From Candidatus Iainarchaeum sp. (GTDB taxonomy: Archaea > Iainarchaeota > Iainarchaeia > Iainarchaeales > GCA-2688035): 64,000 nucleotides of DNA. The translations under genes and the position numbers were made by a program. Numbering within the stretch: position 1 is the first letter of the stretch; each line of letters starts with the position of its first letter. The notes beneath the pieces were generated by a model, which worked only from the letters and a program-made list of their open reading frames with translations, made no database searches and was not told the origin of the DNA. Below are positions 6,668 to 57,334 of the stretch, in pieces. Location: contig JAFCCL010000005.1 of NCBI GenBank assembly GCA_017610205.1, forward strand, positions 1 to 64,000, read 5' to 3'.

Positions 6668-6741
6668 TAGCGAGCCTTAGCAAGCCTGTTTGATTGCCTC
6701 CAAAGGCAATCAGGCCCGCACCAGACGGGCGTGACGGCTAA
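6668..6741. repeat. GC-rich structured intergenic element, homologous to 57204-57334
   Basis: Hairpins GATTGCC/GGCAATC and GCCCG/CGGGC; aligns to the reverse complement of 57204-57334 at both ends. Confidence 0.6.
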
Positions 6742-6779
6742 CGAAAGACTTTTTAAGTACTTAAGCTATTTATTTAAGC

Positions 6780-7163
6780 ATGCCTTTAGCCCATTTTGTT
6801 AATGCAGCTAGAAAAAACACACCTGTTTTGGTAAAACCTGTAGAAAATCATACTGGAGCTATTGCTGTAACTAAAAATTCAGCAATTTCTGCAACAGAAG
6901 TTGAAGATTCTCCTGTTTTGGAGCCAAGAGCAGAACTTAAGAAAAAAATGGAGATAATGAGCGAGGCAGAAAAGGCAGCAATTGAAAGGGAAAAAAGTAT
7001 TCCTCAATGGCAGCAGTGTCAGTACCTTAAATCACTTGGTGACAAAAAAATGTGTACACAGTATCTGTCTTTGTGTGCGAAGGAAAAGTGTCAAAAGCGC
7101 TTTATGGAAGCCGACTTTTTTGATTTTAAAAAACACCTAAAACATAACAGGTCTATTAAGTAA
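6780..7163 (+). CDS. Hypothetical protein with C-terminal four-Cys cluster
   Basis: 127 aa; CQYL...MCTQYLSLCAKEKC; TATA-like TTTTTAAG upstream. Confidence 0.7.
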   Translation: MPLAHFVNAARKNTPVLVKPVENHTGAIAVTKNSAISATEVEDSPVLEPRAELKKKMEIMSEAEKAAIEREKSIPQWQQCQYLKSLGDKKMCTQYLSLCAKEKCQKRFMEADFFDFKKHLKHNRSIK

Positions 7164-7194
7164 TTGGAACACCGGAAATCGCTTAGGGCAAAAA

Positions 7195-7212
7195 TTCACC
7201 GGAAACCTGCTC
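7195..7212 (+). promoter_or_regulatory. TTCACCGGAA motif upstream of polB2-like gene (partial second copy CACCGGAAA at 7170)
   Basis: TTCACCGGAAACCTGCTC, TTTAAA 30 nt downstream (7225). Confidence 0.65.
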
Positions 7213-7256
7213 TCTTTCCTTCTTTTTAAAAGCTGCAAAAAACCTATTTTTTCATA

Positions 7257-8762
7257 ATGGAATCTCCCACACCCCTCTGGCTAACTGATGTTAAATATAT
7301 GGAGGGCAAAAAGGCTATTGCAGCCGAATTCTCCCGGTTAAACTTTAGGAGAATGGTCAGGCTGTCCTTTTTTCCTTCATTTTTTTCTGAAAAAAAAGTT
7401 TTGAACATTTTCAACTTACAAAAAATCCTTTCTCAAAGCAATGAAAGGTTTACTATTCTTGATTCAGGCAATTCCTTTAAAATTTCATCAGCAACCTTTT
7501 CAGGTTTGATTAATCTTGCAGATATTTTGTTCAACGAAACAGGCTTTAGGCCACTTGTTCTGAATCCTGAAAGGCAGTTTTTGATTGAAAAAAACTGGAC
7601 TTACTTTGATTGTTTTACCTCTTTCTCTGGGAAAGAAATCTTAAAGCCCGGCTTTGCTTCTGTTCCGGTTGCAAAGTTCGGGCTTTTCTCAGAGGCCTTG
7701 CCTGAAACAATCAGACTTGCTGCAGAAGAAAGTTCTGAACTTGCAGAAAAAATTCTTGAATCAATTGCATTAAGTAAAATTCTTAAAATGCCACTTCAAG
7801 ACATTTCACATTTGGAGTTTGCTCAGGCTGAAGCTTTTCTTGAAAATGCTTTTTGGAAAACAGGATTTGGCAGGTTTTTTCAGTTAAAACAATCTGACAA
7901 AACCAAAACAACAGGCTTTCGCACAAAAGGCCTTTCCGAAATAGATTTTAGCATGCTTTGGCCAACACTGTTAACAAGTCCTTTTTACAATCTTAGTCCT
8001 GATTCAATAAACTGTAACTGTTGTAAGCCAAAAAATGCTTTGGAAAAAAACATTTTGCCAAGCACTCTTGCTGTTGTTGAAATGAAGCAGGACGGCTTTT
8101 TTTTTGAATCGTGTTCTTCTTCATTTTCTCGCAATTTTCATAAAACAATGTCTGGAAAGGAAAGCAGGCTTCGAAGAATGCAGGAATTTTATCTTAAAGA
8201 TATCCCACTAGGTCCTTTTTTCAGATTGCAGCAAGTTTCACTTCCTTTAGCAGATGCCCTAAAGCTTGCTTCTGCGAAAAAAGCCAGAATTTTAAAACAT
8301 GAATTACTTCAATGGTTTTGCCTTAAAAAAGAGGGCTCAGTTTCCAAAGCAGTTTTACATATGAACAGGACTCTTTCATTGCTTGATTCAATTTCGGATA
8401 AAGCAAGTTCTTCTGCATTAAAAGAATATGGTGTTCTTTCCCAATTAAAACTTTCAACAAATCCTGATTTTTTGCTTTGCAATGCATTGCTCAAAACAGG
8501 CACAAGGCTTCTTTGTGCAATTCCTGAACACTTGTGCAGTTCAGAAAGCGCTTTTTTTAATGAACGCCTTTGTTTTGCAATTGAATCTGTAAAATCAAGC
8601 GTTCTTGAAAACTTTGCGGATTTTGCAGGAAAAAGGGAAAGCAGGGTTGTTGCAACAGGAAAAAACAAGGCTTTTGTAAAAAGTACAAGACCACTTTCAC
8701 TAATAAGGCAATTTAGCAAAAAACAGCACATTCCTGCCCTTTTAAGGGCAAAAAGCAGGTAG
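7257..8762 (+). CDS. Degenerate family B DNA polymerase (PolB2-like, probably inactive)
   Basis: EIDFSMLWPTLL...YNLSPDSINCNCC resembles PolB motif A and the PolB2 NISPETxxCxCC segment; no KxxxNSxYG or YGDTDS motif. Confidence 0.7.
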   Translation: MESPTPLWLTDVKYMEGKKAIAAEFSRLNFRRMVRLSFFPSFFSEKKVLNIFNLQKILSQSNERFTILDSGNSFKISSATFSGLINLADILFNETGFRPLVLNPERQFLIEKNWTYFDCFTSFSGKEILKPGFASVPVAKFGLFSEALPETIRLAAEESSELAEKILESIALSKILKMPLQDISHLEFAQAEAFLENAFWKTGFGRFFQLKQSDKTKTTGFRTKGLSEIDFSMLWPTLLTSPFYNLSPDSINCNCCKPKNALEKNILPSTLAVVEMKQDGFFFESCSSSFSRNFHKTMSGKESRLRRMQEFYLKDIPLGPFFRLQQVSLPLADALKLASAKKARILKHELLQWFCLKKEGSVSKAVLHMNRTLSLLDSISDKASSSALKEYGVLSQLKLSTNPDFLLCNALLKTGTRLLCAIPEHLCSSESAFFNERLCFAIESVKSSVLENFADFAGKRESRVVATGKNKAFVKSTRPLSLIRQFSKKQHIPALLRAKSR

Positions 8763-8820
8763 TAACGAGAACATTTTTAAATTCTCCCATGCCCTGTTTA
8801 TTATAATCAAATTCTTTTTT

Positions 8821-9033
8821 TTGATTCATATGATTGACATGACAAGATTTGAAAGGGCAAGGCTTGTAACTGCAAGAGCGTTACAGCTTTCTTTTGGGGC
8901 GCCGCCTCTTGTTAAGCCAACTCCTGGCTTTTCAGCTTATGATCTTGCTAAAGAAGAGCTTGAAAAAAAGGTATTGCCTTTGACAGTAATCAGGAGATTT
9001 CCTGACGGCAGTGTTGGAAAAATTGCAATATAA
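8821..9033 (+). CDS. rpo6: RNA polymerase subunit Rpo6 (RpoK)
   Basis: TRFERARLVTARALQLSFGAP...LPLTVIRRFPDG. Confidence 0.95.
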   Translation: MIHMIDMTRFERARLVTARALQLSFGAPPLVKPTPGFSAYDLAKEELEKKVLPLTVIRRFPDGSVGKIAI

Positions 9034-9047
9034 GGGGAAGTGTTTAT

Positions 9048-9239
9048 TTGGGTAAAGCTGTTCCAAAGTCAATTAAAAGCAGGGTTGAAATATTGCTTGA
9101 AGAATTTCCTGAAAAGTTCGGAACCGATTTTGACAAAAACAAACAGGCTTTGAATGAACTTGACTTTTCACTAAGCAGGTTTAACAGAAATATGATTGCT
9201 GGCTTTATTACCAGAACAAAGAACAGCAAAAAAGAATAA
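9048..9239 (+). CDS. rps17e: 30S ribosomal protein eS17
   Basis: MGKAVPKSIK...FGTDFDKNK...RNMIAGFITR. Confidence 0.92.
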   Translation: MGKAVPKSIKSRVEILLEEFPEKFGTDFDKNKQALNELDFSLSRFNRNMIAGFITRTKNSKKE

Positions 9240-9258
9240 TTGCGAATTCTAATTAAAA

Positions 9259-9371
9259 AATAGTAATCCCGAATTTTAATAGAATAGTAATCCCGAATTT
9301 TAATAGAATAGTAATCCCGAATTTTAATAGAATAGTAATCCCGAATTTTAATAGAATAGTAATCCCAAATT
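9259..9371. repeat. 24-bp tandem repeat, 4 full copies plus a partial copy
   Basis: AATAGTAATCCCGAATTTTAATAG at 9259, 9283, 9307, 9331, partial at 9355; no spacers. Confidence 0.95.
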
Positions 9372-9379
9372 CTGTTTAA

Positions 9380-9472
9380 TTCTTATTTTTCAATCGTCAC
9401 TTTGAATTCATAATTACATTCTTATTTTTCAATAGTTACTTCTAATTCATAGTTACATCTTTATTCTTCAAT
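9380..9472. repeat. 39-bp degenerate tandem repeat derived from the rad50 3' end
   Basis: TTCTTATTTTTCAAT... at 9380 and 9419; third copy at 9458 overlaps the rad50 stop codon. Confidence 0.8.
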
Positions 9473-11524
9473 TGGCACAAGAACCGGTTTTGTTGCTGCA
9501 TCGTCGTCTTTTTCCCTTTCAAGAATATAAAGTGAGGCAGAAGCAGCCTTTTTCATTTCACTATTGTGGGTTATTACAAAAACCTGTTCCACAATTGAAG
9601 GCAAATGCAATTGCATCATCTTTCCCAGTGTTTCAACCGCCGCAGTATCTAAGTTGTGTGTTGGCTCATCTAAAATAAGCCAGCTTAGGTTTCTTGCAAG
9701 TACCAGTGAAAAGGCAATTCTAATGCATATTGCTGCAGCGCTTCTTTCTCCCCCGCTTAAAATTCCTTCAACCCTAACCCAGTTTCCGCCTTTTTCTTTT
9801 GCTTTTAATTCATAGCTTCCTTTTTCAACATCCATTTTTGCCGAAACATAATCCTTATAGGGGTAAATTCTTTGCCAGATATCATGCATTGCTTCGTTGA
9901 TTGTTGCAATAAGCATTTCTCTTAATTCTGCCTGTGCTGCAATCAGACTGTTTTCAAAAAATTTCATGTTTTCAAAACCTGATTCAAGTGCCTTTATTTT
10001 TTCTTCCCATTCAATAATTTGCTTTTTTGTTTTTTCAATTCTTTCAATTCCTGTTTTTATCTCTTTTACAAGTTGAAGATTTGCTTCAATTTCTTTCTTT
10101 GCCGATTCAGCGCCTGCTTTTGTTTCAATTGCCTTTTTTCTTTTATCCAAAAGCTCTTTTTCATCAAAATTAATTTCTTTAAAACATTTCTCAAGAACAG
10201 CGATTTCTTTTGCAATATTTTCCACTTGCCGTTCCTTTTCTGCAAGCTTAACAATAGCTTCTTTTAATTGCCCAAGCTTTATCTCTTCTTCCCTTGCCTT
10301 TTCCTTTTTTGCTGTTGATTCTTCCAGTTCCCTTTTTAGTTTTTCAATTATAACATTTGCCTCGGCTTCTTTTTTCAGCGTTTCTTCAAATTTTGTGCTT
10401 GCTTTCCTAATTCCTTCCTCTGTCTCCTGCACAAGCTTTTCCCTTGTCTTAATTTCAAGTTTTTGCCTGCAGGTGGGACATTCTGCTCCAAGGCCTTTGA
10501 ATTCTTTTAAGTGTTCATTTAGTTCCTCTGCTTTCTTTTGGCTTAATGCTGCTTCTTTTCCAAACCCTGTCTTTTTCTTTCGTTCCTCTTCCTCTTTTTT
10601 CTTTGAGTCCAAAATCTTTTTTTCCAATTTCTTAATTTCTTTTTCCAGGGCTTCTTTTTCTTTTTTAATTTCTTCCAAACTTTTTTTGCCGGCTTCTTTT
10701 TTTGTTTCTTCAACTGTCTTTTCAAGTTCTGATATAATTGCTTTTTTTGCTCCAAGCTCTTCCTTAATTTTCCTAAATTCTTTTTCCTTTTCCTCCAATG
10801 CCTTAATCTCTTTTACAAACCATTCCACTTCCAGTGTCTTTCTCCTGGCTTTTTCTTCAAGCGTTTTGTTTTCTTTTTCTTTTGCCCCAATTCTTTTCAA
10901 AAGCTCTGTTTCCCCTTTTTTATCCAAAGAATCCTTTTGTTCCTTTACAAGTACTGCCTTAGCTTTTGCCATTGTCCTAAGTTTGTTTGAAGCACTTACT
11001 GCATTTCCTCTTACAACCTCGTAGCGTTGCAAATCCAACAATTCGTCAAATTTTGTTTTCCTTTCACTTGGAGTTAATCGCAAAAAGGAATCTATTTCAT
11101 TTTGCTCACTGTATACTGCTCTGCTGAACAAATTGTAATTAATTTCAATTGCCTTTTCAACTGCTTTGTTTACATCTCTTGGCTTTGGCCCTGCCAAAAC
11201 CCTGCCATCACACCAAATCTTTGCTTCTGTGCTTCCCTTCTTTTTAATTTTTCTTTCAACCCTGTAATCTTTTTTCCCATAAGAAAATGCAAGTTCAACA
11301 ATTGCCTCCTCTGCCTGATGCGGTTTGGTCATTATAACCTCCTCAAGGGAAACCCTTCTGCTTTGCAGGCTTGGGAAGGTTCCAAATAAGGCAAAACAAA
11401 CAGCGTCCATTACTGAACTCTTACCGCTGCCCATTGCGCCTATGAGTACATTGGTTCCTTTTCCAAATTCAAAAGAACTGTCATAATGGGTTTTCCATCC
11501 TTTAAGATTTATGCTTTCAATCAT
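9461..11524 (-). CDS. rad50: Rad50/SbcC-like SMC ATPase with zinc hook
   Basis: Walker A GAMGSGKSS, coiled coils, central CPTC hook, LSGGE, LILDEPT, ITHN. Confidence 0.88.
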   Translation of the reverse strand: MIESINLKGWKTHYDSSFEFGKGTNVLIGAMGSGKSSVMDAVCFALFGTFPSLQSRRVSLEEVIMTKPHQAEEAIVELAFSYGKKDYRVERKIKKKGSTEAKIWCDGRVLAGPKPRDVNKAVEKAIEINYNLFSRAVYSEQNEIDSFLRLTPSERKTKFDELLDLQRYEVVRGNAVSASNKLRTMAKAKAVLVKEQKDSLDKKGETELLKRIGAKEKENKTLEEKARRKTLEVEWFVKEIKALEEKEKEFRKIKEELGAKKAIISELEKTVEETKKEAGKKSLEEIKKEKEALEKEIKKLEKKILDSKKKEEEERKKKTGFGKEAALSQKKAEELNEHLKEFKGLGAECPTCRQKLEIKTREKLVQETEEGIRKASTKFEETLKKEAEANVIIEKLKRELEESTAKKEKAREEEIKLGQLKEAIVKLAEKERQVENIAKEIAVLEKCFKEINFDEKELLDKRKKAIETKAGAESAKKEIEANLQLVKEIKTGIERIEKTKKQIIEWEEKIKALESGFENMKFFENSLIAAQAELREMLIATINEAMHDIWQRIYPYKDYVSAKMDVEKGSYELKAKEKGGNWVRVEGILSGGERSAAAICIRIAFSLVLARNLSWLILDEPTHNLDTAAVETLGKMMQLHLPSIVEQVFVITHNSEMKKAASASLYILEREKDDDAATKPVLVPIEE

Positions 11525-11582
11525 TCCAGAATCCCGATAACAAGTATACCCCCAAAACCGCTTTTAAAGGATTTGAAAGAAG

Positions 11583-11594
11583 GCTTCCTGTGAA
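11583..11594 (-). promoter_or_regulatory. Variant motif TTCACAGGAAGC upstream of rad50
   Basis: One mismatch to TTCACCGGAAG, same orientation as the gene, TTTAAA 26 nt downstream. Confidence 0.5.
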
Positions 11595-11657
11595 GTTTTT
11601 TGGGGTAGGAGGCAGAAATTTAATTAAAAACAAAGGGCTATTTAATTATTGATAGAA

Positions 11658-11906
11658 ATGCGTACCCAAAAGAAAATCAAGTCAACCCGAACAACTGGAT
11701 TGTTTGTTTCCAAAAGATTAGCCCTTGAAGTAGTTTGTGCCAAACATAACACTTCCATTGGGAAAATTCCTGCATGGCTTTTAAAAAGGACACCTGCCTA
11801 TGTAGATTCTTTTTTAACTAAACCGTCAAAGCATAAACAACGCAGAGCTAAAAGAACGCCTGTGTCCACACCTTCTAAAAAACCACGACCCAAGTACAAA
11901 AAATAA
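11658..11906 (+). CDS. Hypothetical basic protein
   Basis: K/R/P-rich ORF, MRTQKKIK... Confidence 0.5.
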   Translation: MRTQKKIKSTRTTGLFVSKRLALEVVCAKHNTSIGKIPAWLLKRTPAYVDSFLTKPSKHKQRRAKRTPVSTPSKKPRPKYKK

Positions 11907-11946
11907 TTAAATAACTTGCGTGCCTTTTATTAATAGTGAAAAGTAA

Positions 11947-12614
11947 ATGAAAAAAAAATCCGGGGTAAAAGTGGGGCATTTTCAAACGCAATTGCAAAAG
12001 AGTTAATAAAAAAGAAAAAATATTCTGGTAAAAACCTTGCAGAACTTGTTAGAGCAACCCGCGAAAATCCTTCTACTGGTATTAATACTAATTGGGTTAA
12101 TAGGGCAAGAGCCAAAATGAAAATTGGTCCAACTAAGCAAAGAGGTCACCCGGTTGACCCAGTCACTGCAAGAATGGTAAGAAACCTTGTTTGGATGACT
12201 GATTTTAACCAAAAAAAAATTGTCAAAATAATGAACTCTATTGGAAGAAATATTACATCTCCAACAGTTACAAAAATAATGAAACAGGACGAGCATTACA
12301 GATCACCCCAATCAGGAAAAACAGAAAGGGCTAAGAAGAAAAAGGAATTAACTGAGTATTTCAAAAAAATGCCGGTAGGAGAAAGGGTTAAAAGTTGGAC
12401 TACTTTAAATGACGCATTGCAGACTTTAAAGAAAACGCATGCTGTTGAAAAAGATCCTGCTGCAAGGGAGTTGTTACATGAAAAAATGTCCACTATCTTT
12501 GAACTCTTAGAGGCGCTTGTGCCACTTATATCGGAAGCAGCAAGAAAAGCGGATTATGCCAAGACTCTTAAAGCGTTTGAAAAAATTGACCGAATTGTAA
12601 ATAAACAACGTTAA
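11947..12614 (+). CDS. Hypothetical basic protein; 5' end out of frame at an A9 tract (ORF track start 12117)
   Basis: Frame is open from 11940 with no start until 12117; ATG 11947 followed by A9 would be in frame with one extra A. Confidence 0.55.
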
Positions 12615-12880
12615 AGCAGTGTCATTTCAACCATTTCAGCGTCTTCCACAAAAGGCAATTCGTTTATTTCTTTGGTAAGCTCTTCCACTACTTTGTTGTC
12701 CTTTTCGGGGACAGTAAAAGCTGCTTTTATGAACTCTGCACCAAAGCCTATTGGAATTCTTTTTGCATCCCTGAATTCGCCCTTTTTAACAGTTTTAATG
12801 CTTTCAAGGGTTTGGTCAAGTTGTTCCATTTCCTTGGCATTAATTTTGTAAATCAAAACAGTTTTTCCCAAAAGAATCAC
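12611..12880 (-). CDS. ef1b: Elongation factor 1-beta
   Basis: IPIGFGAEFIKAAFTVPE...VEDAEMVEMTLL; downstream of the Zn-ribbon gene, as usual in archaea. Confidence 0.88.
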   Translation of the reverse strand: MILLGKTVLIYKINAKEMEQLDQTLESIKTVKKGEFRDAKRIPIGFGAEFIKAAFTVPEKDNKVVEELTKEINELPFVEDAEMVEMTLL

Positions 12881-13036
12881 CTATGGCCCTTCAAACCCGC
12901 ATTCAGGGCACTTGTATGCTTTTGCCGTATTTCTGCAGTGAAAGCACCTTATAATTGCTGCTTTTCCGCACGCAGGGCATCTAAATTCCACAAAGTCATC
13001 TGAGACTTCCTTATTGCATGTACTACATACCTTCAT
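12881..13036 (-). CDS. Zn-ribbon protein (DUF1610/HVO_2753-like, 51 aa, not in ORF track)
   Basis: MKVCSTC...FRCPACG...IIRCFHCR...YKCPECGFEGP; conserved neighbour of EF-1beta. Confidence 0.88.
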   Translation of the reverse strand: MKVCSTCNKEVSDDFVEFRCPACGKAAIIRCFHCRNTAKAYKCPECGFEGP

Positions 13037-13139
13037 TTTAAAAAAACTCCAAAACAGTTTCTAAAATAACTTTCGTTGGCTATTCTTTAAAAAGGCTACT
13101 GTCAGCCAAAGCATTGCTTCCAAACAATTTTCTTCCCCC

Positions 13140-13556: not shown

Positions 13557-13619
13557 AAAACCAATAAAATTAGTGCTTCACACCCTTTTAAATATTTCCG
13601 TGGCAACAGAGTTTACAAA

Positions 13620-13781
13620 TTCACTCATCACCTCCAATAAAAAATTTTTTCTAAGGACTCTGTTTTTCTCGGCTTAAACCTTTGCCCTCGCTTTGCTCAG
13701 GCAAAGGATTTAATGCCTCCAAAAACACCAGAGTCGTCCACGAAAAAATTCATTCTAAATTGGAGGTGATGCAATGAGTTT
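13620..13781. repeat. ~160-nt imperfect palindrome (long hairpin)
   Basis: CATCACCTCCAAT/ATTGGAGGTGATG arms, inner GACTCTG/CAGAGTC and CCTTTGCC/GGCAAAGG, loop CTCGCTTTGCTCA. Confidence 0.85.
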
Positions 13782-14849: not shown

Positions 14850-14876
14850 AAACACAATTACACTAATATCTATTAT

Positions 14877-14966
14877 GGACCCGTCTGCTAACGGATCGGC
14901 TCCTAGGCTTCGGAATTTTTATAATGGAGAAACCTAGTAATGGGGGTTCGACTCCCTCCGGGTCCA
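14877..14966 (+). tRNA. tRNA-Arg(TCG) with 18-nt intron at 37/38 (14914-14931)
   Basis: Acceptor GGACCCG/CGGGTCC, anticodon stem CTAGG/CCTAG, T-loop TTCGACT, bulge-helix-bulge (CTTC/GGAG with GGA and AAA bulges); no encoded CCA. Confidence 0.9.
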
Positions 14967-14968
14967 AT

Positions 14969-15048
14969 CGCCGACACGTTCGGCGGGCACGAGTGCCATC
15001 TTCGTGTCCTTGGGCACTCGATGACACAACTCGCCTTGCGGGCTCGCA
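14969..15048. repeat. Structured GC-rich element directly after the tRNA
   Basis: Hairpins CGCCGA/TCGGCG and CGAGTGCC/GGCACTCG; shares GAGTGYCATCTTCGT...TCGATGACAC with 57243-57273. Confidence 0.6.
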
Positions 15049-15881: not shown

Positions 15882-15924
15882 CACAGAATAATTTTTATAA
15901 TGGTCTACGTATACTTTATTAGAG

Positions 15925-16375: not shown

Positions 16376-16377
16376 TT

Positions 16378-39497: not shown

Positions 39498-42400
39498 TTA
39501 TTTTCCCCTGTATACAAATTCGCTTGTTTTTTTCTTAACCTCTTCCATTCCCCTTACTCCTTCTTTGCATATTCTTTCAAGGAAAACCTGTCTTTGATTC
39601 AAATTATCTTTAACTGCCTGCCTGCTTAATCCTGTAAAGTCTTGCAGTATTTTCAGAAACTTTATTGGAATATCTGTTTTTTCAAGCTTGTCTTTAACCG
39701 GGTCTCTTGCAAAAATTGTTTGGGTTTGCGCATGCTTTAAGAGAACGCCGCTTAATTCTGCAATTTCTGTAATTCTTCTTATTGTTCCTTTTCTTTTGTC
39801 GTGAATTTTGTGTTCAATAATTATAATGTCAAGACCTGAGAGCATTACCTCCGGAACGTTCATTGGCGGTGAGGTTACTCTAACAATTGTTTCCTGTGGA
39901 GAATTTGCATGGATTGTTCCCAAACAGTTTGAAACAATTATTCCGTTTGCGATATAATTATGGTTTCCTTCTACTGTTAAATCATAAACATCGCCTTCAA
40001 ATTCTTCTTCTTTAATTGAAACAATTTCTTCAAATCTTGTATCTGATTGTTCCATAATTTTTAACTGTTTTGAAGTTTCGTTTTGCAGCAAATCGCATAT
40101 TTTTGCAAGCTGTTTTCTTGAAGGTCTCCTGGCACTTGTTTCATATGACCTGATATTGCTGCCTGTTGTTGCTCCAAGCAAGGCTCCCAATTCATCCTGT
40201 GTAAATCCTGCTTCAAGCCTTGCATTTTTGAGTGTTCTTTCCATATTTGGAAACAAATCAAGGCTGTTTTTTGATTTTTTGACAAGTACTTCTAATTTTT
40301 CTTTTTTCTTTTTGTGTACAAATCCGATTTTTTCTTCAAACTTTTCAAGATTGTCTTTTCCATAGATTGATATTCTATAATAGGGTCTAATGTTTCCTTT
40401 ACCGTCTTTTTCCTGGGCATATGTTGACGAGGTTATACCAAATCTCATCAAAATTATTGGAAGTTTTCTTGCAAGGTCTTTGTTTGCTGTGCTGAACTGG
40501 ATGCAGTTTGCAAACAGGTTTACGTGGGCTTCACAGTCATATAATCCTTGTAAAAGCAAGGCTATTCCGCTGTCTTTTGCCGTAAGTGTTTTTTCAGTCA
40601 TTTTGAAGATTTTTGTTTTGTTTCCAATTGGCATTTCATATTCTTTATTTATTTTTTTAATCAGTTTTTTATCGCAAATCTGCACTCTTGAAAATCCCTC
40701 ATAATCAAATCTGCTTATTTTGTTTTCAGTCAATGGCAAAATTTCTTCTTTAAATTTTTTGATTAATGATTCTTCTTTGTTGACAAATTGAATTGCTTCT
40801 ATGCCAAGGTGTCCATCGCCATAAATCAAACCTGTGAGATAGGGCTGTAGTAGCTTTTTTTCAGCTTCAATTTCTATTCCTGTTGGAATAGCAATAAAAT
40901 TTCCTGTTTTTGCCTCGCATGCATTGATTTCCTGCAATCCATTACTGATTTTGTAAATCGGGTGGTCTTTTGTAAGTAAAAGTTCTTTTCCGCTCTTAAG
41001 CCTGATTTTACACAACTTTTCTTTTGTGCGTTTTCTCCAGACATGTGTTACTTTTTTGTTTTCAATTTTTAGGGTTTGTTTGTTTAACGATGGCACCATA
41101 ATTTTTTTGCCTGTTTCAACAAATTCAAAGTTACCTTCTTTCACAGGGTCTTTTTCTTCAAATTCTTTTTCTACAAGGTTTGCTATTTCGGAAATATTTC
41201 CATCGGAAAGTTGTATTAATGTGTTTCCAATTACCGCTCCATCGTGACCTGTATTTAGTGCTGTAAATAATGTGAATGCTTCATCGTGCCTTACTTCTCC
41301 GACAATTATTCTGTCTGGCCTCATTCTCAAACTGTTTTTTGTCAAAACGTCAAGTGTTAATTCGCCTTTTCCTTCAAGTCCTGGTGGCCTTGCTTCCAGT
41401 CTTACCCAATGCTTTAACGGCAAAGCAAGTTCTGCAGTGTCTTCTATTGTAACAATTCTTTCAGTATCCGGAATGAATGCTGCAAGGCAGTTTAATGTTG
41501 TTGTTTTTCCTGACCCAGTTCCTCCTGATATCAGGATGTTTGCCGGTTTTGCTCCAAGTCCGTCAACGCACAACCATAGGAAGGCTGCTGCTTCTGCTGA
41601 AATTGTTCCGTTTTTTATAAGGTCTACTATAGTGTAAGGGTCTTTTCTAAATTTTCTGATTGTAAGAGTTGCGCCTTCAACAGAGGCTGGTGGAATTGTT
41701 GCATTTACTCTGCTTCCATCAGGCATTCTTGCATCAAGCAATGGCGAGCTTATGTCAACACGTCTTCCGACATTTCTTGCAATTCTGTTAATCAAATCAA
41801 TTATTTCTTTGTCTGAATAAAATTCAATATTGCTTGACATCATTTCATATTTTCTGTGAAAAAGGTAAACTGGTTTTTTTGCTCCAATAACCATAATTTC
41901 TTCAAGGTTGTCGTCTACTACAAGTGGGTCTATAATTCCGTAGCCAACCATTTCTCTTATAACTGATTCTGCATAAAATGGAAACCTTCTTTCAGGAATG
42001 TGGAGTTCCGGGCTGTTTCTTAGAATTTCAAGAACACGCTGTCTGTAAACATTTCTTCGCTGTTCAATATCCCGTACTTTGTATGGGGTGATTGCAATTA
42101 GTCTTGTGGCAGCCTCTTTTATTGTGTTGATTACTGCTTTTTCCTGCTTGGTTGGTCTTGCCACTGGCACAACATAGTATGGCAGTGATTTTCCTGGCAC
42201 ACTGTAAATTTTTACGTTTGAATATTTTTCAATAAGTTTTTTTTCAGGTGCTGTTTCAAGTTCTTTTTCAACTGTACTTTTCTTTTTTTCGTCAGTTTCT
42301 TCAACAATTTCTTCTTCTGGAGGAAGTTCTGGAACTTTTTCCCGAATCGGTTTTGCTTCAGGTTCTGTTTTTACAATCGGTTTTGTTGCAGGTTCTGTAG

Positions 42401-42581
42401 CAGGTTCTGTTTTTGGCTTTGTTTCCGGTTTTGGAACGTGGCCTTTCTTTATTTGTTCAATTTCTTTTGGAACTTTTGCTCCCTGCTCTGCCTTTTTTGG
42501 GGCTTTTTCAGTTTCCAGTTCTTCTTTTTTAGCCAGCTTTACCTTTTTTATAAGGTCTGCCAAATAGTCTTCTTCTGCCAT
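39498..42581 (-). CDS. KlbA/CpaF-type pilus assembly ATPase with intein
   Basis: LDARMPDGSRVN, GGTGSGKTT, LRMRPDRIIVGEVR, TGHDG|intein|CLGTIHAN. Confidence 0.93.
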   Translation of the reverse strand: MAEEDYLADLIKKVKLAKKEELETEKAPKKAEQGAKVPKEIEQIKKGHVPKPETKPKTEPATEPATKPIVKTEPEAKPIREKVPELPPEEEIVEETDEKKKSTVEKELETAPEKKLIEKYSNVKIYSVPGKSLPYYVVPVARPTKQEKAVINTIKEAATRLIAITPYKVRDIEQRRNVYRQRVLEILRNSPELHIPERRFPFYAESVIREMVGYGIIDPLVVDDNLEEIMVIGAKKPVYLFHRKYEMMSSNIEFYSDKEIIDLINRIARNVGRRVDISSPLLDARMPDGSRVNATIPPASVEGATLTIRKFRKDPYTIVDLIKNGTISAEAAAFLWLCVDGLGAKPANILISGGTGSGKTTTLNCLAAFIPDTERIVTIEDTAELALPLKHWVRLEARPPGLEGKGELTLDVLTKNSLRMRPDRIIVGEVRHDEAFTLFTALNTGHDGAVIGNTLIQLSDGNISEIANLVEKEFEEKDPVKEGNFEFVETGKKIMVPSLNKQTLKIENKKVTHVWRKRTKEKLCKIRLKSGKELLLTKDHPIYKISNGLQEINACEAKTGNFIAIPTGIEIEAEKKLLQPYLTGLIYGDGHLGIEAIQFVNKEESLIKKFKEEILPLTENKISRFDYEGFSRVQICDKKLIKKINKEYEMPIGNKTKIFKMTEKTLTAKDSGIALLLQGLYDCEAHVNLFANCIQFSTANKDLARKLPIILMRFGITSSTYAQEKDGKGNIRPYYRISIYGKDNLEKFEEKIGFVHKKKKEKLEVLVKKSKNSLDLFPNMERTLKNARLEAGFTQDELGALLGATTGSNIRSYETSARRPSRKQLAKICDLLQNETSKQLKIMEQSDTRFEEIVSIKEEEFEGDVYDLTVEGNHNYIANGIIVSNCLGTIHANSPQETIVRVTSPPMNVPEVMLSGLDIIIIEHKIHDKRKGTIRRITEIAELSGVLLKHAQTQTIFARDPVKDKLEKTDIPIKFLKILQDFTGLSRQAVKDNLNQRQVFLERICKEGVRGMEEVKKKTSEFVYRGK
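39927..41237 (-). mobile_element. Ala1 (class 2, KlbA-type) intein, 437 aa, with LAGLIDADG and Cro/C1-like HTH
   Basis: Starts AVIGNT, TKDHP, GLIYGDG, LQGLYDCE, LKNARLEAGFTQDELG, ends IVSN|C. Confidence 0.9.
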
Positions 42582-46124: not shown

Positions 46125-46164
46125 AATGCATTATTACCGTGTTTCCTGAATAAATAACTTTCCA

Positions 46165-47463: not shown

Positions 47464-47499
47464 GATTTGCTTTTAAACAATTCTGAACACATTTTTATC

Positions 47500-51634: not shown

Positions 51635-51722
51635 TGCTTCCCCAACTCCTTTAATCATATCTTTGCCATGAAAACAGTTTTAAACTTATTACCCTTTAGT
51701 TATCTTAATTAAGTGATTAAAA

Positions 51723-52268
51723 ATGGGTGAAAAAGAAGAGCAGAATTCAAATTCCGGGAAAGAACCAAGTTCTGGGAAAAAGCAGGCTTCTAATATAAAG
51801 CCTCTTTCAACAAACAAGCTTATTGTAGCAGGCGTTATCTGCGTAATGGCCTATGTTGTAATTATGTTTTTGGGCGTTGCAAGAGCACAACTTTCAGAAA
51901 TTCCTTTAATTGGCGATTTTTTGACTCTTCCAGGTTTTGAAAGCCCGATGTTTTTGGTAATGCCATTTTTTGCATTTTTTGCATTGTTTTTCTTAATTGA
52001 CTGGGTAAGAAACGGTTTTGAGCTAAAGCTTTCTTTTGGAATGCTTTGCCTTATAGTTCTTGTAATATTTGTTTTGCTTTCTCTTGCAGCTTACTATGTT
52101 GCCCTCTACTGGTACATTTCAAATTTTGCTCTGTTGCAGGGGATTGAAATGAACCCTGACCAGGTTGACCTTTGGGGCAAGCTAACAAACAGCGCCTTTA
52201 TGCTCTTCATCTGGGGCGGAATGTTTGGCGTACTTGGAAGATACCTTGTTGAAAAAATCAATTTGTAA
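51723..52268 (+). CDS. Membrane protein
   Basis: 4 hydrophobic segments. Confidence 0.75.
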   Translation: MGEKEEQNSNSGKEPSSGKKQASNIKPLSTNKLIVAGVICVMAYVVIMFLGVARAQLSEIPLIGDFLTLPGFESPMFLVMPFFAFFALFFLIDWVRNGFELKLSFGMLCLIVLVIFVLLSLAAYYVALYWYISNFALLQGIEMNPDQVDLWGKLTNSAFMLFIWGGMFGVLGRYLVEKINL

Positions 52269-52335
52269 AACGAATTCAACGCCTACTGGGGCACCATTAC
52301 TTTCTTTTTAATTTCTTTCCCACAATTTCTTTTTT

Positions 52336-53586
52336 ATGAAAGCGTTTGTAGAAGGCAGTGGCTGCAGCCTGAATAAGAGTGATACTGAACAAATAAGAGG
52401 CTTTTTGCTGCAGAACAATTTCGAGCTCGTAAGCAAGCCGGAAAGCGCTGATTTGCTTTTGCTCAATGCCTGTGCTGTAAAAGAGCAGACCGAAACCAAG
52501 ATGCTTAGGAGAATAGTGCAGTTGAATTCAATTTCCAAAAAGCAAAAAAGCACTCTTGTTGTTTTTGGATGCTTTCCAAAAATAAACCCGCTGGCAATTT
52601 CTTCCATTTCCAAAAAAATTGTGCAAATAGGCCCATGCCTTGAAAAGCTTGCTTCCTTTCTTGAATTGCCTGAACAAAATTTTTCCCCCGACCTGAACGA
52701 AAAAAAGACAAGCAATTTAATTTCAATTATTCCAATTTGCCGGGGCTGCCTTGGAAACTGTGCCTATTGCGCAGTGCGCAATGCAAGAGGCAAACTGAAA
52801 AGCTATTCCATTGCACAGCTGAACAAAAAGTTTAAGCAAGGGCTTGAGCAAGGCTGTAGTGAATTCTGGCTTACGGCCCAGGACTGCGGCTGTTACGGTT
52901 TTGACATTGGAACAAACATTGTTGCTTTGCTCAAAACACTGCTGCGCAACAAAGGCAATTTTAGGATAAGGGTTGGAATGGCAAACCCTGCGCATTTGAA
53001 AAAGTTTTTGCCAGAATACCTTGCCTTGTTTGAACACAAAAGACTTTTTCGCTTTTTTCATTTGCCGGTGCAATCCGGCAGCAATGCCGTGCTTGAAAAA
53101 ATGAACCGAGGTTATAAGAAAGAGGATTTTTTGCTTATTGTTAAAAAAATTCGCAAACGGTTTCCTAACGCAAGCATTTCCCTTGATTTAATTGTTGGCT
53201 TTCCAGGAGAAACAGAGCAGCAGTTTGAAGAAACACTTTTCCTTGTTGAAAAAGTTAAGCCAGATGTTGTAAACATTAGCAGGTTTGGTGCAAGACCAAA
53301 TACGCTTGCGGCTCTAATGCCTGGGCAGCTTCATGGAAGGGAAAAAAAGGAAAGAAGCAGAAAGCTTACTGTTTTATGCAAAAGAATTTTGCTTGAAAGA
53401 AACAAGGGCTTTATTGGTTCAAAGCAGTTAATTCTTGTTGACAAAAAGGGATTGAAGGGAAATTTTGTCGGCAGAAACCAAAATTACAAACCAATTGTGG
53501 TAAAAAAGCCAGTTCTTGGAAGTTTTGTTTCGGTTAAGGTAAAAAAAGTTTTTTCAAATTATCTTGAAGCATCTGTGGCAAAATAA
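52336..53586 (+). CDS. mtaB: tRNA t6A methylthiotransferase (MtaB/MiaB-like radical SAM)
   Basis: GCSLN, NACAVK, CLGNCAYC, HLPVQSGSN, IVGFPGET, TRAM-like C-terminus. Confidence 0.88.
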   Translation: MKAFVEGSGCSLNKSDTEQIRGFLLQNNFELVSKPESADLLLLNACAVKEQTETKMLRRIVQLNSISKKQKSTLVVFGCFPKINPLAISSISKKIVQIGPCLEKLASFLELPEQNFSPDLNEKKTSNLISIIPICRGCLGNCAYCAVRNARGKLKSYSIAQLNKKFKQGLEQGCSEFWLTAQDCGCYGFDIGTNIVALLKTLLRNKGNFRIRVGMANPAHLKKFLPEYLALFEHKRLFRFFHLPVQSGSNAVLEKMNRGYKKEDFLLIVKKIRKRFPNASISLDLIVGFPGETEQQFEETLFLVEKVKPDVVNISRFGARPNTLAALMPGQLHGREKKERSRKLTVLCKRILLERNKGFIGSKQLILVDKKGLKGNFVGRNQNYKPIVVKKPVLGSFVSVKVKKVFSNYLEASVAK

Positions 53587-53730
53587 ATCAAAAAAGAACC
53601 GCCTGTGAAAAATAAATCAAAAAAAGAATTAGTTTTTTTTGCAAAAAAATTGGCTTATTCTTCTGTTGGTTTTTCAGTTTCTTCACTACTGTCGTCGTCT
53701 CCGCACCAGCATCCGTGCAAAAATTTCATA

Positions 53731-54014
53731 GTGAACTACCATAACCTAACACCTTTGGCGTCGAGGTTATAGCTTCCTGTTTCATTGATAAGGCTTGCTT
53801 TGGGCTTATACCGCCAGTAGAGGCTTCATCTCTTTCAGGCTTGCATTCGGACAGTTCCTGCCCTATCTTACTTTCGTAAGCATTATGTTTATTGTTTTGG
53901 TTATCTGCCAGCACTTTCAGCCTTACAGACAACTTATGTGTATAGGGTTCTTTCTTCTTTATAAGTGTTTTGTTCGCCAATTCATCCACAACCTAACATA
54001 GTTCAGGTTGTGGA
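53731..54014 (-). mobile_element. Non-autonomous IS200/IS605-type remnant retaining the tnpB 3' end/omegaRNA scaffold
   Basis: GQELSECKP...SMKQEA tnpB-tail-like sequence, subterminal hairpin CTATAACCT/AGGTTATGG, end GGTAGTTCAC; 10-bp hairpin at 53985-54014 as candidate left end. Confidence 0.75.
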
Positions 54015-54136
54015 CTTCTTGGCAATAAGGTTAAATCACCTTAATTTCCTTTGTTTTACCTTTTTAAAAACCTTTCTTAAAGCCAAAGTAGGTTTTTTAA
54101 CAACTTATGCAGCGATTACTATTAGGGGTTGTTTGA

Positions 54137-54928
54137 TTGCTTTTCCAAAATTCCATTGAGCAATATAAGGCAAATTTCAAAACTGCGTTAGTTTTTGCCC
54201 TTCTTTTGGTGTTTGTGCCTGTTTTTGCCTTTTTTCACAATATTTACATAAGCAGCGGCTCGATTTTTATTGACTACAACATTGCCCTTGCAGACCCGCT
54301 TATTCTTCTTGCTGAAACAGGCTTAATTGCCCTTTTTCTTCTTTTTTATTCCTTTTTTGTTTCGGTAATAATTTTTTCTGTGCGAAAAAATCTAAGCCCT
54401 TTAAAACTGCAATTTTATTTGCATGAAATGATTCAAAAGTTTGCACTTCGCCTGTTTTCCTTCTTTGCCATCTATTGCTTTTTCTTTTTCCTGCTAATGT
54501 CAGGCCTTGTTGCTTTTGGCATTCCGTTGCTTTTGGCAAACATTATTCTGCTTGTGATTTCGCTTTTGTTAATGTTTGTTCCGCAGGCAGTTGTTGTAGA
54601 GGAAGAAGGCTTAATGCATGCGCTTTCAAGCAATTTCGAGTTTCTTTTCAAGACTCCAAAGTCTTTTGCAACCATTGCAATAATTGGAGCAGTGTTCCTT
54701 TCACTCCTGCAGCTTTTTGAATTTGTCCTGGCACAGTTTACAATGTTTGCACCATACATTTCACTACTACTAGCTCTTGTTTTCATTTTTCCTTTTCTTG
54801 AAATAATGAAAACCTATTTGTATATGATGAAGTTTGACCTCATAAAACACCATGAGATTGCAAAAAGACAAAAGCCAAAACAGCCAAGGCCAGAGCCTGA
54901 GTCAATTGCAGATGCAGTAAAAAAATAG
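54137..54928 (+). CDS. Multi-pass membrane protein
   Basis: About 6 TM segments, FVPQAVVVEE. Confidence 0.8.
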   Translation: MLFQNSIEQYKANFKTALVFALLLVFVPVFAFFHNIYISSGSIFIDYNIALADPLILLAETGLIALFLLFYSFFVSVIIFSVRKNLSPLKLQFYLHEMIQKFALRLFSFFAIYCFFFFLLMSGLVAFGIPLLLANIILLVISLLLMFVPQAVVVEEEGLMHALSSNFEFLFKTPKSFATIAIIGAVFLSLLQLFEFVLAQFTMFAPYISLLLALVFIFPFLEIMKTYLYMMKFDLIKHHEIAKRQKPKQPRPEPESIADAVKK

Positions 54929-54993
54929 TTTCCTTCAGGAACTTTGCCCATTAATCTATTCATTCTTTTTCTTCAAATTCAATAATTCAAAGC

Positions 54994-56625
54994 CTATTTG
55001 CCTTTTTCTTCAAATTCAATAATTCTAACATTTGAGTCAATCAATTCGTTTAATTCTTTTCTGTTTTCGGCTTTTGCTGCAAAGCTGTAATTTTTGCAAA
55101 TGATTTTGCTTTTCCAGATTCTTTTTTCTTCAACTATTTTTTCAGGCTTCCTAAACGCTTTTTTATTTTTTGCTTCAAACCTTTTCCTTGCCTGAACGTT
55201 TTTCAATTCTGTTACAACAAAGTTTTCTGGCAAATGATTTTTCAGTTCAGTTAATATCTTTTCAGCAAACGAAATTGCCTCGTTTGCTTTTTCTGTTCCA
55301 ACTGCAGTTTTGCCTATTTCCCCAAGGTTGTCCAATGCAATTGCAGAGGAAAGTTCTTCAATTTCAATTCCTTGTTTTTTGATATAGTTTTTTTGCAAAA
55401 GCTCCCTTCTTTTAATTTTGTCTAATTCAACAACAGCCCTTGCCTTTTTTCCAAGTTCTTCAAAGAACGATGTTTCATTTCCTTTGCAGCCAAGAGCTAT
55501 TGATGTAAGATTGATTGCTGAAAAATTGCATAATCCTTTTCCTTCAAATGCAATTCCGTTTACCAGGGCAAATTCTGCATTTCGGCAGTTTAACACTGTT
55601 TTTGGAGTATGCTTATGCAATAGCTTGAGTTTATATTTTGTGTCAACTGCTATTGCATTTTCAAATACTGGTGCAGGGCCTTCACTTCCTGATTTTAGCA
55701 AGCTGTTTGCAGCCGCAGCAATGCTTTCTCTTTCAATTCCTTTGTCAAAAGATTCTGGTTCAAACAATGCCAGCGTGTTAAATGCAGGCACTGCTTTTCT
55801 GTTAAGAAAAATTGCTTTGGAAGCTCTTGCAAAAAGAATTGCTGCATCCTTTGCGGTTTTCTTTCCAACATTTGAAGCAATTGCTACGTTTACTGCAAAA
55901 AAGTTAGGGCGCCAGCTGTAAAACCTGCTTGCTTTGTTTGCTTTTTCAAGAATGTTGAATATCTTATCTTTTGGATTTTCTCCAGCTTTTGGTACAATGT
56001 TAACGGCGATGGGCTTTGTTGAAAAATCCTGAAGTTCTCCAATAAATATTTCTCCTGACAAATGCATTCTTCCAAGTTTTGAAGGAATGATTCTGAGTAA
56101 ATTGTACTCGGCCATTATTGCTGTGCTGCCATAAGGTCCTTCACTTGCTTTTTTTCCTGCTTCAAAAACAGGCAATCCCAATCTTGTATACTGGTTTCTG
56201 ATATTTTCGTGCCCGTATTCTAAAAGCTTTACATTAACCATTTCCCTAATTAAAGAAGTGCTAATGTTTTCGATTTCCAAATCTTTTATTTTTTCTTCAA
56301 CTTCATGTCCTATCTTTTCGGCAACACCTCTTGGTACATTGGTTTCCATCAAAAGGCTTTTGATTATGTTGCCTCTGTCAAAGCCTTCAATAAGCTGCGA
56401 GCTTGTTCTGACCTGCATGCTTTGAAATGAAGCATAAATTGCTGCGGCCTTTGGATCAAGCTTTTGCAGCATTTCAACGGCTTTTTTTCTCATTGCTTTA
56501 ATGCCCTTGCTTTCTTCTGCTGAAAGCTCTTTGACAATCTTTGTAATTGTCCACTTGTCAGCATTTGCTTCCTCGCATTCTTTGGCAATTTTTTCAATAA
56601 GTGCCTCAATTGGCTTTTCTTCCAT
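54994..56625 (-). CDS. ATP-cone protein related to class III ribonucleotide reductase NrdD, degenerate
   Basis: VRTSSQLIEGFDRGNIIKSLLMET...LIREMVNVKLLEYG, YTRLGLPV, MHLSGEIFIGEL; catalytic Cys and glycyl-radical motif not found. Confidence 0.7.
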   Translation of the reverse strand: MEEKPIEALIEKIAKECEEANADKWTITKIVKELSAEESKGIKAMRKKAVEMLQKLDPKAAAIYASFQSMQVRTSSQLIEGFDRGNIIKSLLMETNVPRGVAEKIGHEVEEKIKDLEIENISTSLIREMVNVKLLEYGHENIRNQYTRLGLPVFEAGKKASEGPYGSTAIMAEYNLLRIIPSKLGRMHLSGEIFIGELQDFSTKPIAVNIVPKAGENPKDKIFNILEKANKASRFYSWRPNFFAVNVAIASNVGKKTAKDAAILFARASKAIFLNRKAVPAFNTLALFEPESFDKGIERESIAAAANSLLKSGSEGPAPVFENAIAVDTKYKLKLLHKHTPKTVLNCRNAEFALVNGIAFEGKGLCNFSAINLTSIALGCKGNETSFFEELGKKARAVVELDKIKRRELLQKNYIKKQGIEIEELSSAIALDNLGEIGKTAVGTEKANEAISFAEKILTELKNHLPENFVVTELKNVQARKRFEAKNKKAFRKPEKIVEEKRIWKSKIICKNYSFAAKAENRKELNELIDSNVRIIEFEEKGK

Positions 56626-56732
56626 GATTAAAAGCAATGCTACGAAATTTTTAACTGCTTGTCCCTCCTCTTCGAAAAGCAAACTTTTTAATAAAGTTTT
56701 ATTTGAATTATTAATGTGATGGGGGGGATTTT

Positions 56733-57206
56733 TTGGCAGTGAGCCTTGACAAAGTTGATTTGGTAATAATAAAAAACCTTTTGAAGGATGGCCGTTCAAG
56801 TTTTAGTGGAATTGCAAAGCAGATTGGTCTTACTGATGTTGCAATAAAGAAAAGGATTGAAAGCCTTAAAAGAAAAGGCGTTTTAAGCAGCATTACTGCA
56901 AATCTCAATCTAAAAATTTTGGGATTTGAAAATCCAATTTATATTCAGATAAGGAGTGAAATTGGAAAAAACAAGGACCTGTTCAAGAAACTGAATGACT
57001 TTGACTGCCTTGTTGAATTGTACCAAGTTTTAGGCGAATACAACCTGCTTGCAAAACTTGTTGTAAAAGATTTAGGTGAGGCAGAAAAGGTTATTGCAAA
57101 GCTTGGTTTGCTTGACGGAATAATTGACCTGAAAACACTTGTTGTTTTATCTGAATTAAAACATGGTCCAATACTTCCAAGCGGAGCATTGCAGAAAAAA
57201 TTATAG
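56733..57206 (+). CDS. Lrp/AsnC family regulator
   Basis: LDKVDLVIIKNLLKDGRSSFSGIAKQIGL, VLGEYNLL. Confidence 0.92.
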   Translation: MAVSLDKVDLVIIKNLLKDGRSSFSGIAKQIGLTDVAIKKRIESLKRKGVLSSITANLNLKILGFENPIYIQIRSEIGKNKDLFKKLNDFDCLVELYQVLGEYNLLAKLVVKDLGEAEKVIAKLGLLDGIIDLKTLVVLSELKHGPILPSGALQKKL

Positions 57207-57334
57207 CCATCACGCCCGGCAGCCGCCACTGCCGGCTGGTCAGAGTGTCATCTTCGTTTGGATTCGATGACACGCCCTAGCTGGTCCGGATCCGATTGCC
57301 TATAGTAGCAATCCAACAGCTCGCTTGGGCTAGC
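57204..57334. ncRNA. Multi-hairpin structured element (candidate ncRNA or palindromic repeat)
   Basis: Stems CCGGCAG/CTGCCGG, GTGTCATC/GATGACAC, GATTGC/GCAATC, closed by TAGCC/GGCTA; shares modules with 6668-6741 and 14969-15048. Confidence 0.55.

Follow-up and report, generated by a model that had tools for sequence, protein, structure and literature searches.

What is the nature of the GC-rich, potentially structured islands that lie between the genes in the first 64 kb of contig C1 (JAFCCL010000005.1) of Candidatus Iainarchaeum sp.? The initial annotation of this 64,000-nucleotide stretch (hereinafter, the window), which was made from the sequence alone, combined four such islands into a single modular family and offered two readings, an undescribed class of non-coding RNA (ncRNA) or a mobile palindrome family akin to repetitive extragenic palindromes (REPs) or transposable elements of the miniature inverted-repeat type (MITEs). 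The analysis described here leads us to conclude that three of the islands, those at 6670-6739 (minus strand), 14969-15047 (plus strand) and 57205-57334 (plus strand), are probably copies of undescribed small, non-coding, non-autonomous mobile insertion elements that are found in an order of DPANN archaea. Each of the three contains a conserved segment that we denote the head; the fourth island, at 13620-13781, has no head and is unrelated to the head-bearing family. Units of this family enter new sites, including other units, and duplicate the target DNA over 12-46 bp.

The genome in question (G000) is 1.37 Mb long, has 37.5% G+C and is 92% complete. Relatives retrieved by means of a conserved protein bear the labels Iainarchaeum, Micrarchaeota or Diapherotrites, which places the genome in a DPANN lineage. 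The comparison covered six further members of the same genus, 23 genomes from the family (61-93% complete, with 5 of the 23 at least 90% complete and at most 5% contaminated) and 215 from the phylum that represent 79 genera. In what follows, C-numbers denote the contigs of G000, G-numbers the genomes of its relatives, and L-numbers the loci fetched for comparison.

Anatomy of the units

A unit consists of a conserved head of ~25 nt, with the consensus AGCCG-Y-CAC-xxC-CGGCT-GG-T-yyG-RG, followed by a variable, irregular hairpin and, usually, by a tail of the GCTCGC or GGCTTCGC type that closes the hairpin; the size is ~59-140 nt per unit or composite. The simple form, which we call alpha type, is represented in the window by the unit at 6670-6739 (minus strand), with the head at 6715-6739, a GATTGCC/GGCAATC hairpin at ~6685-6714 and the tail CTTGCTAAGGCTCGC at 6670-6684; this unit is located 39 nt upstream of the open reading frame 6780-7163. 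The second unit, 14969-15047 (plus strand), is composed of a head (14969-14993) in which the outer pair is C-G rather than A-T, a hairpin denoted B1 (14994-15027) with an extended inner stem, and a tail (15028-15047). It begins 2 nt past a tRNA gene and lies in the tRNA trailer. The third island, 57205-57334 (plus strand), is a composite. An outer alpha-type unit (57205-57220 and ~57271-57334) has its head interrupted by a second, nested unit of what we call the beta type, at 57221-57273 (plus strand), which comprises a head of the TG/CA subtype (57221-57245) and a B1 hairpin (57243-57273). On either side of the nested unit, 7-10 nt of the outer head are repeated (CACGCCCGGC / CACGCCCTAGC), and the same kind of nesting recurs at C17:91243-91282.

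These three islands bear out much of what had been read from the letters. The reverse complement of 6668-6741 does align with 57204-57334, the two having in common the head, a GATTGCC-loop-GCAATC hairpin and a CTCGC-type tail, and the extra module at 57243-57273 is present again at 14991-15027. Such similarity far exceeds the chance expectation: when at most 2 mismatches are allowed, the head pattern occurs 19 times in the genome and the reversed pattern not once. As for module shuffling, the arrangement is more aptly seen as whole units inserted into, or in tandem with, one another.

Mobility of the units

So do these units move? Comparison of orthologous sites provides the most direct view. 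The insert at 57205-57334 is absent in five of the six genus relatives, namely, G010 and G007 (the two closest relatives, with flanks 87% identical), G006, G011 and G008, and the sixth, G009, has a different unit at this site; in G010 and G007, the TAA stop codon of the AsnC-family regulator gene runs directly to the 3' end of the Na+/H+ exchanger gene. At C19:96830-97040, a 210-nt array has a perfect 22-nt repeat on both flanks, and four of the five relatives searched lack the insert and possess a single copy of the 22-nt sequence. The target in this case is a stop codon that overlaps the start of the next gene, and the duplication leaves both genes whole. The reverse situation, where the site is empty in G000 and occupied in a relative, was observed as well, with units present in G007 and G011 (46-nt repeats), G009 (29 nt) and G010 (19-20 nt). 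The other sites in the window are similarly polymorphic: at the site orthologous to 6670-6739, G007 has a unit with a different head subtype and a different hairpin, G011 a degenerate unit, and G010 none, and behind the orthologue of the tRNA gene that precedes 14969-15047, the unit is missing in G007 and G011 and represented in G008 by a diverged unit with a covarying stem.

The target duplications were quantified for 116 distinct heads (at most 2 mismatches) with enough flanking sequence, from G000 and the fetched loci of relatives. A repeat was counted when the upstream sequence ending no more than 3 nt from the head recurred within the next 240 nt with a score of at least 11, and 580 pairings of upstream and downstream sequences from different loci served as the null. 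Head-anchored repeats were detected for 18 of the 116 heads versus none of the 580 null pairings, and 16 remain after the removal of a tandem element copy and a tRNA-Lys gene pair. The lengths of these 16 duplications are 12, 15, 15, 17, 19, 20, 20, 20, 22, 23, 29, 30, 31, 33, 46 and 46 nt, with the mode near 20. Where a copy is located behind a tRNA gene, the final 15-23 nt of the tRNA recur after it, and non-tRNA targets, for example, gene junctions and the starts of genes, show the same kind of duplication. In two loci, the closest relative retains just the first 8-12 nt of the head, which suggests imprecise loss, and several orthologous sites are occupied by different head subtypes and hairpins in different genomes, which points to turnover at preferred sites. 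Of the two readings in the initial annotation, the one of mobile palindromes fits the evidence, which consists of sites that are empty in relatives, duplicated targets, copies nested or in tandem, and an uneven distribution. In the strict REP or MITE sense, this reading fails: the duplications are long and variable, and there are no GTAG or CGTC tags, no terminal inverted repeats and no link to RAYT or Y1 genes.

A separate observation concerns a short repeated motif, CCTCAGTCCGCCCAT (minus strand), that is found at 6472-6519 of the window, at C10:60899-60931 and in many places across the genus relatives. In G007 and G022, units are bordered on each side by this motif, which is their duplicated target; it represents a preferred target or else another small repeat.

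Covariation and folding

The head consists of two overlapping helices, H1 (AGCCG/CGGCT) and H2 (C-x-x-C / G-(T)-y-y-G). In an alignment of 97 heads (95 rows distinct, one row misaligned), 95.5% of the H1 and H2 cells are paired, compared to 84.6% in shuffles, none of 500 shuffles being as high, and when the partners are slid by 1-3 columns, pairing drops to 26-40%. The variable H2 pairs are GC/UA/AU (61/18/11) and CG/GC/UA (38/27/19), and the outer H1 pair is AU/CG/GC/UA (83/4/2/1), with the addition of a G-U wobble; at least four head subtypes with compensatory stems can be distinguished. The order of H1 and H2 is that of a pseudoknot; yet, a single nucleotide would have to span H1, and therefore we leave it undecided whether the two helices coexist or alternate. 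Compensation extends to the body of the unit: in 14 units with a hairpin of one type, which is closed by a constant GCAAG/CTT(C)GC helix, both partners have changed and pairing is maintained at 7 of the 18 predicted pairs.

Do these features make the units functional RNAs? The helices covary strongly and match no Rfam family, and to this extent, the units may be an undescribed ncRNA class. What this reading lacks is the excess of wobble over other mismatches that is typical of functional RNAs: among the mismatches in the head helices, there are 19 G-T and 22 A-C, a pattern that fits neutral decay after insertion. When folded as RNA, the complementary strand is more stable in 78 of 96 copies (mean -22.7 vs -20.2 kcal/mol over 60 nt) and in all three elements of the window, because its internal loops are purine-rich (GA/GAA). 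Judging from these predicted folds, if a single strand is active, it is probably the complementary one, with the head at its 3' end. The B1 hairpin was also considered as a kink-turn, a C/D-box element or a hammerhead, and these assignments were rejected by inspection, with the required G.A pairs or core motifs out of register.

Distribution of the family

How large is the family, and how far does it extend? BLAST and pattern scans, a genome-wide collection of copies that the initial annotation had called for, identify ~20 loci in G000. The head pattern with at most 2 mismatches occurs 5-21 times in each of the 6 other genus genomes and is found in 14 of the 23 family genomes, with no hits to the reversed pattern. 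A stricter head pattern is found in 24 of the 215 phylum genomes and 16 of the 79 genera, all within one order (again, with none for the reversed control), among them G150, a genome of another family that is 97% complete and has 24 head copies. When one genome from each of 185,579 species was searched, the exact head pattern was detected in 35 stretches that belong to this archaeal clade, bar a few singletons in GC-rich bacteria, and some of which come from metagenome-assembled genomes with bacterial labels; there were no exact matches in viral contigs. The B1 hairpin in its exact form is limited to the genus. Rfam, at both gathering and E-value thresholds, gave nothing but sub-threshold noise at the elements and matched only tRNAs in 25 related loci, and a search limited to the main texts of the available papers found nothing like these elements described for this group of archaea. 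The heads are locally on one strand in parts of the genome (contigs C17 and C19); on the two large contigs of G150, 16 are forward and 8 reverse, and hence no strand bias is claimed.

In several G150 loci (L191, L193, L195, L199, L200 and L204), a further small hairpin of the CCGGTTTCGTCCGG type precedes the heads, and longer bodies with multiple hairpins come after them. The family is therefore more elaborate in that genome, and the head is not always the outer boundary. It was also observed that several genome records of archaeal relatives have bacterial names in their titles (Chloroflexi/Chloroflexota, Falkowbacteria) and would appear to be mislabelled bins.

Where the units survive

The units persist where the harm is small: at stop codons formed with a preceding T, at the 5' and 3' ends of tRNA genes, upstream of promoters, at gene junctions that the duplication repairs and, in one case, in frame within a cleaved leader. 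In G000, 6 of the ~20 loci touch a tRNA gene, and 6 of the 45 tRNA genes adjoin a unit; the head end always faces the tRNA. The trailer copies are the window unit at 14969 and those in L102, L103, L152, L155 and L156, and the antisense-oriented leader copies are C10:83382, C24:5144 and those in L160, L169, L173 and L176. In G150, sixteen stretches of 6-11 kb fetched around heads include 8 tRNA genes, ~5 of which are directly against the head.

At protein-coding genes, the stop codon is a recurrent position. The base that precedes the element is T for 51 of the 116 heads and A for 35, and in 43, this T and the AG at the start of the element form TAG. For 18 of the 116 heads, an open frame of 75 codons or more ends at this TAG, compared to 3 and 9 for the other two frames; in the window, T at 57204 and the first AG of the composite island supply the TAG stop of the AsnC-family gene 56733-57206. 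At C18:64670, the gene extends six codons into the head. The in-frame case is C19:99620-99686, where a 63-nt unit (21 codons) resides in the N-terminal leader of a pilin-like protein of 1700 residues (gene C19:99577-104679), just before the KGF motif; the orthologues in G007, G010 and G009 are without these 21 codons. Overall, the units occur in both orientations relative to the neighbouring genes. Two paralogous aldolase-like genes (C17:90505-91200 and C3:210159-210689) each have a unit just upstream of a TATA-like box (TTTAAA), in the same relative position.

What moves the units?

No mobilizing enzyme encoded by, or linked to, the units was found. A match to the reverse transcriptase domain (PF00078) above the cut-off was not detected in G000 (the best score being 13.6 bits), nor was RVT_1 detected in any of the 23 family genomes at E<=0.001, the completeness of which, 61-93%, falls short of proving absence. 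Cas1 (PF01867), the hallmark of a casposon-type mechanism, has no match in G000 at its completeness of 92%. By contrast, there are 7 matches to Y1_Tnp, in two subfamilies, and four TnpB genes (the loci include C3:59446-59991, C10:25979-26455, C5:6435-7001, C10:42002-42592, C16:52226-52822 and others); the other multi-copy genes, found by reading the sequences by eye rather than by a Pfam scan, are TnpB and an IS66-like gene. The linkage to HUH (Y1) genes that the initial annotation had proposed to look for does not materialize: the 7 Y1 genes have no heads on their flanks, and the Y1 copies have end hairpins of their own that are different. A longer, autonomous form of the element was sought in G000 by looking for exact repeats, up to 8 kb downstream, of the 30 nt that precede each head, and in G150 by local alignments within 3 kb, with no convincing case in either genome. 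Terminal inverted repeats are not apparent either, the ends of aligned units being unlike by inspection, without a formal scan. Apart from these searches, we observed that one Y1 subfamily is accompanied, just downstream of the gene, by a conserved, highly GC-rich structured stretch of ~100 nt.

Several considerations weigh against the view of the units as mobile elements. As just described, no mobilizing enzyme, no terminal inverted repeat and no autonomous element with the same ends came to light. Mobility is read from comparisons, with no transposition event observed directly. A recognizable duplication is missing in 100 of the 116 heads, through age or another cause, and where duplications are present, their lengths vary beyond what any known transposase would give. 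The different units at orthologous sites could reflect long-term retention under selection, with replacement, and the enrichment at tRNA ends would also suit a role in RNA processing. Because the copies are related to one another, fewer independent events lie behind the covariation than the counts imply, whereas the number of pair types is unaffected.

Could the units then be, mainly, functional RNA modules, that is, structured leaders and trailers by which tRNA and mRNA ends are defined or protected (in processing, termination or stability), which are selected as such and are copied only occasionally? This explanation is compatible with mobility and would account for the covariation of both the head helices and the hairpin stem, for the head end always turned toward the tRNA, whether in a trailer or in an antisense-oriented leader, for the occupation of the same tRNA sites across genera, and for the better folding and purine-rich internal loops of the complementary strand. 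Nevertheless, we consider it unlikely: the closest relatives do without units at the same tRNA and genes, the great majority of tRNA genes adjoin none, both orientations relative to the neighbouring genes occur, one copy lies within a coding frame, the helix mismatches show no RNA-type wobble excess, and Rfam has no match. A different possibility is that RNA is merely the intermediate, the units being retroelements comparable to short interspersed nuclear elements (SINEs), with the RNA of the complementary strand, head 3', copied into a nicked target by target-primed synthesis and template switching producing the chimeras. The variable duplication lengths combined with one precise end, at the head, are indeed what such an element would show, and the mosaic, nested units and the stability of the strand that places the head at its 3' end are compatible with this scheme. 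Set against the lack of any RVT_1 domain in the searches above, and the fact that the subfamilies have defined tails of their own instead of random truncations, with no A-rich or other priming tail evident, it appears highly improbable.

We regard as the least probable of these alternatives a REP-like system in which a Y1 (HUH) transposase of the IS200/RAYT kind nicks the head hairpin in single-stranded DNA, for all that GC-rich hairpin units in mosaics are reminiscent of such systems, that 7 Y1_Tnp genes are at hand in G000, and that IS200-like right ends are hairpins followed by a TCAC-type end that loosely resembles the YCAC in the head loop. The absence of heads around the Y1 genes speaks against this scenario, as does the distribution of these genes, which are present in 9 of the 24 head-bearing genomes vs 46 of the 191 others and absent from the 97% complete G150 with its 24 heads and from G168. 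IS200/IS605 and REP insertion are not known to produce target duplications, in contrast to the 12-46-nt duplications of the units. The units also have no unpaired GTAG or CGTC tag. In favour of this scenario, CGTC-tagged REPs, too, are described as lacking a dedicated transposase (PMC3733652).

How, then, could a non-coding mobile element that encodes no enzyme spread? Under the hypothesis we favour for the mobile units, an enzyme acting in trans, supplied by the host or by an unlinked gene, would recognize the folded head in single-stranded form, two nicks, one in each strand and separated by a loosely set distance, would open the target, and repair of the gaps would turn this distance into the duplication. 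The variable and long duplications argue for two such loosely coupled nicks rather than for a transposase with a fixed stagger, and the sharpness of the boundary at the head speaks for the folded head being the place of recognition or cleavage. The long duplications, in turn, would allow precise loss by recombination and, consequently, rapid turnover at the same sites. A bolder version, which we put forward tentatively and which may well turn out to be wrong, holds that the units are a new class of archaeal mobile elements without an element-encoded transposase, reverse transcriptase or Cas1, in which a housekeeping enzyme that acts on DNA or RNA ends would recognize the folded head, be it a knot or a two-state switch, loosely spaced nicks would yield the 12-46-bp duplications, and the units would double as structured ends of tRNAs and mRNAs.

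Comparison with known elements

Small GC-rich hairpin repeats are a known kind of element, so is there anything new in this family? In behaviour, the units come closest to the GC clusters that are mobile in yeast mitochondria (Wu and Hao 2015, PMC4478555, where Weiller et al. 1989 is cited). These clusters, along with the double-hairpin and repetitive hairpin elements of other mitochondria, are similarly short GC-rich hairpins in an AT-rich compact genome, polymorphic between close strains, with units that merge and shuffle, flanked by direct repeats and encoding no enzyme; their flanking repeats are of 2-3 nt (AG or ACT), and the mechanism is given there as unresolved (PMC4478555). The likeness is one of behaviour only, without homology, and the present host is no organelle: here, the units reside in an archaeal chromosome and have a two-helix head with compensatory subtypes, 12-46-nt repeats and positions at tRNA ends and stop codons.

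With REPs and their composites, the bacterial interspersed mosaic elements (BIMEs) and REP doublets forming hairpins (REPINs), the units share their extragenic GC-rich palindromes, mosaics, frequent location behind genes, families of stem subtypes and patchy occurrence (PMC3733652; see also PMC2817692, PMC3116915). The units are indeed short, imperfect, GC-rich extragenic palindromes in many copies, the number being modest at ~20 loci per genome. In REPs, however, an unpaired GTAG or CGTC tag is present, and the repeats join head to head into dimers; REPs of the GTAG class go with RAYT genes, no enzyme is known for the CGTC class, and the tagged REPs were surveyed from bacterial phyla (PMC3733652). 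The archaeal units have no unpaired tag, head-to-head dimers or RAYT association, and their duplications are long. The head begins with AGCCG, the first base of which is paired in H1, and CGTC is found only within GCCGTCAC of one head subtype, partly in the stem. The palindromic elements of Rickettsia (RPEs), which the same survey names as CGTC-type repeats (PMC3733652), are comparable in that small structured repeats are tolerated in frame in protein-coding genes; in the present family, there is one such case, most copies are intergenic, and there is no sequence relation.

MITEs (see PMC10969869) are likewise small, non-coding, multi-copy, non-autonomous elements with target duplications; the units differ in having neither terminal inverted repeats nor a parent insertion sequence, the ends of the Y1 copies (the only multi-copy genes with flanks read) being different from the unit ends, and in that the duplication length is not fixed. 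The tRNA-associated copies bring to mind yet other systems. Integrase-type elements leave the tRNA 3' end as a direct repeat, and in Escherichia coli, the repeat units found after the tyrT gene terminate in the tRNA 3' end, much like the units behind tRNAs that are followed by a second copy of the tRNA 3' end; unlike in these cases, the targets here also include non-tRNA sites, and the insert of 60-210 nt comes with no integrase.

The combination of the head, the duplications and the lack of a linked enzyme matches no described prokaryotic element. The family is unusual in having an archaeal host, a head of two covarying helices, and duplications that are long and variable with no enzyme linked to them. 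The genomes of DPANN archaea are among the smallest of any cells, and knowledge of their mobile DNA and non-coding RNA is scant. It appears that even tiny genomes host an active structured non-coding element that reshapes gene ends by supplying stop codons, extending or interrupting frames and contacting tRNAs. The mechanism of the mitochondrial GC clusters has gone unexplained for decades, and a tractable archaeal family, with occupied and empty sites cleanly told apart, could open this question to testing. There is a practical side as well: the units break assemblies at contig ends and mislead gene callers, causing false starts, false C-terminal extensions and missed tRNAs.

Other features of the window

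The genes adjacent to the islands are a Fic-domain gene, the tRNA gene, the AsnC-family regulator and the Na+/H+ exchanger. That a tRNA precedes the element at 14969, as the initial annotation had it, is confirmed by an Rfam tRNA match of 35.1 bits (gathering score 29) at 14877-14966; the gene itself occupies 14876-14967 (plus strand). With default settings, ARAGORN reports no tRNA anywhere in the window; it missed this gene because of an intron of 18-19 nt after the anticodon loop, which is absent from the G007 orthologue, and finds it only with the intron option. The label SeC(tca) that ARAGORN -i assigns is probably a mis-call, the anticodon loop and the orthologues reading as Arg(UCG).

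The excluded island at 13620-13781 is an imperfect palindrome without strand assignment that separates the starts of two divergent genes; the hairpin at its centre spans 13677-13712 (z -5.6). It belongs to a family of its own, ~160 nt in size, with four copies in G000, the other three being at C16:22246-22411, C16:132180-132335 and C2:3259-3321. Both arms contain GGAGGTGAT and ATG, and a TTAAAC..GTTTAA-type stem is conserved while the loop differs from copy to copy. The CTCGC-like motif that had been taken to link this palindrome to the other islands does occur in the tails of the three units; in the palindrome family, the CTCGC..GCTC-like loop is confined to the window copy. This family may be the regulatory region of a repeated two-gene cassette.

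Two genes in the window bear inteins: 1970-5068 (plus strand), which encodes a HerA/DUF87 helicase, and 39498-42581 (minus strand), which encodes a type II/IV secretion ATPase and in which the intein has a LAGLIDADG domain and a helix-turn-helix.

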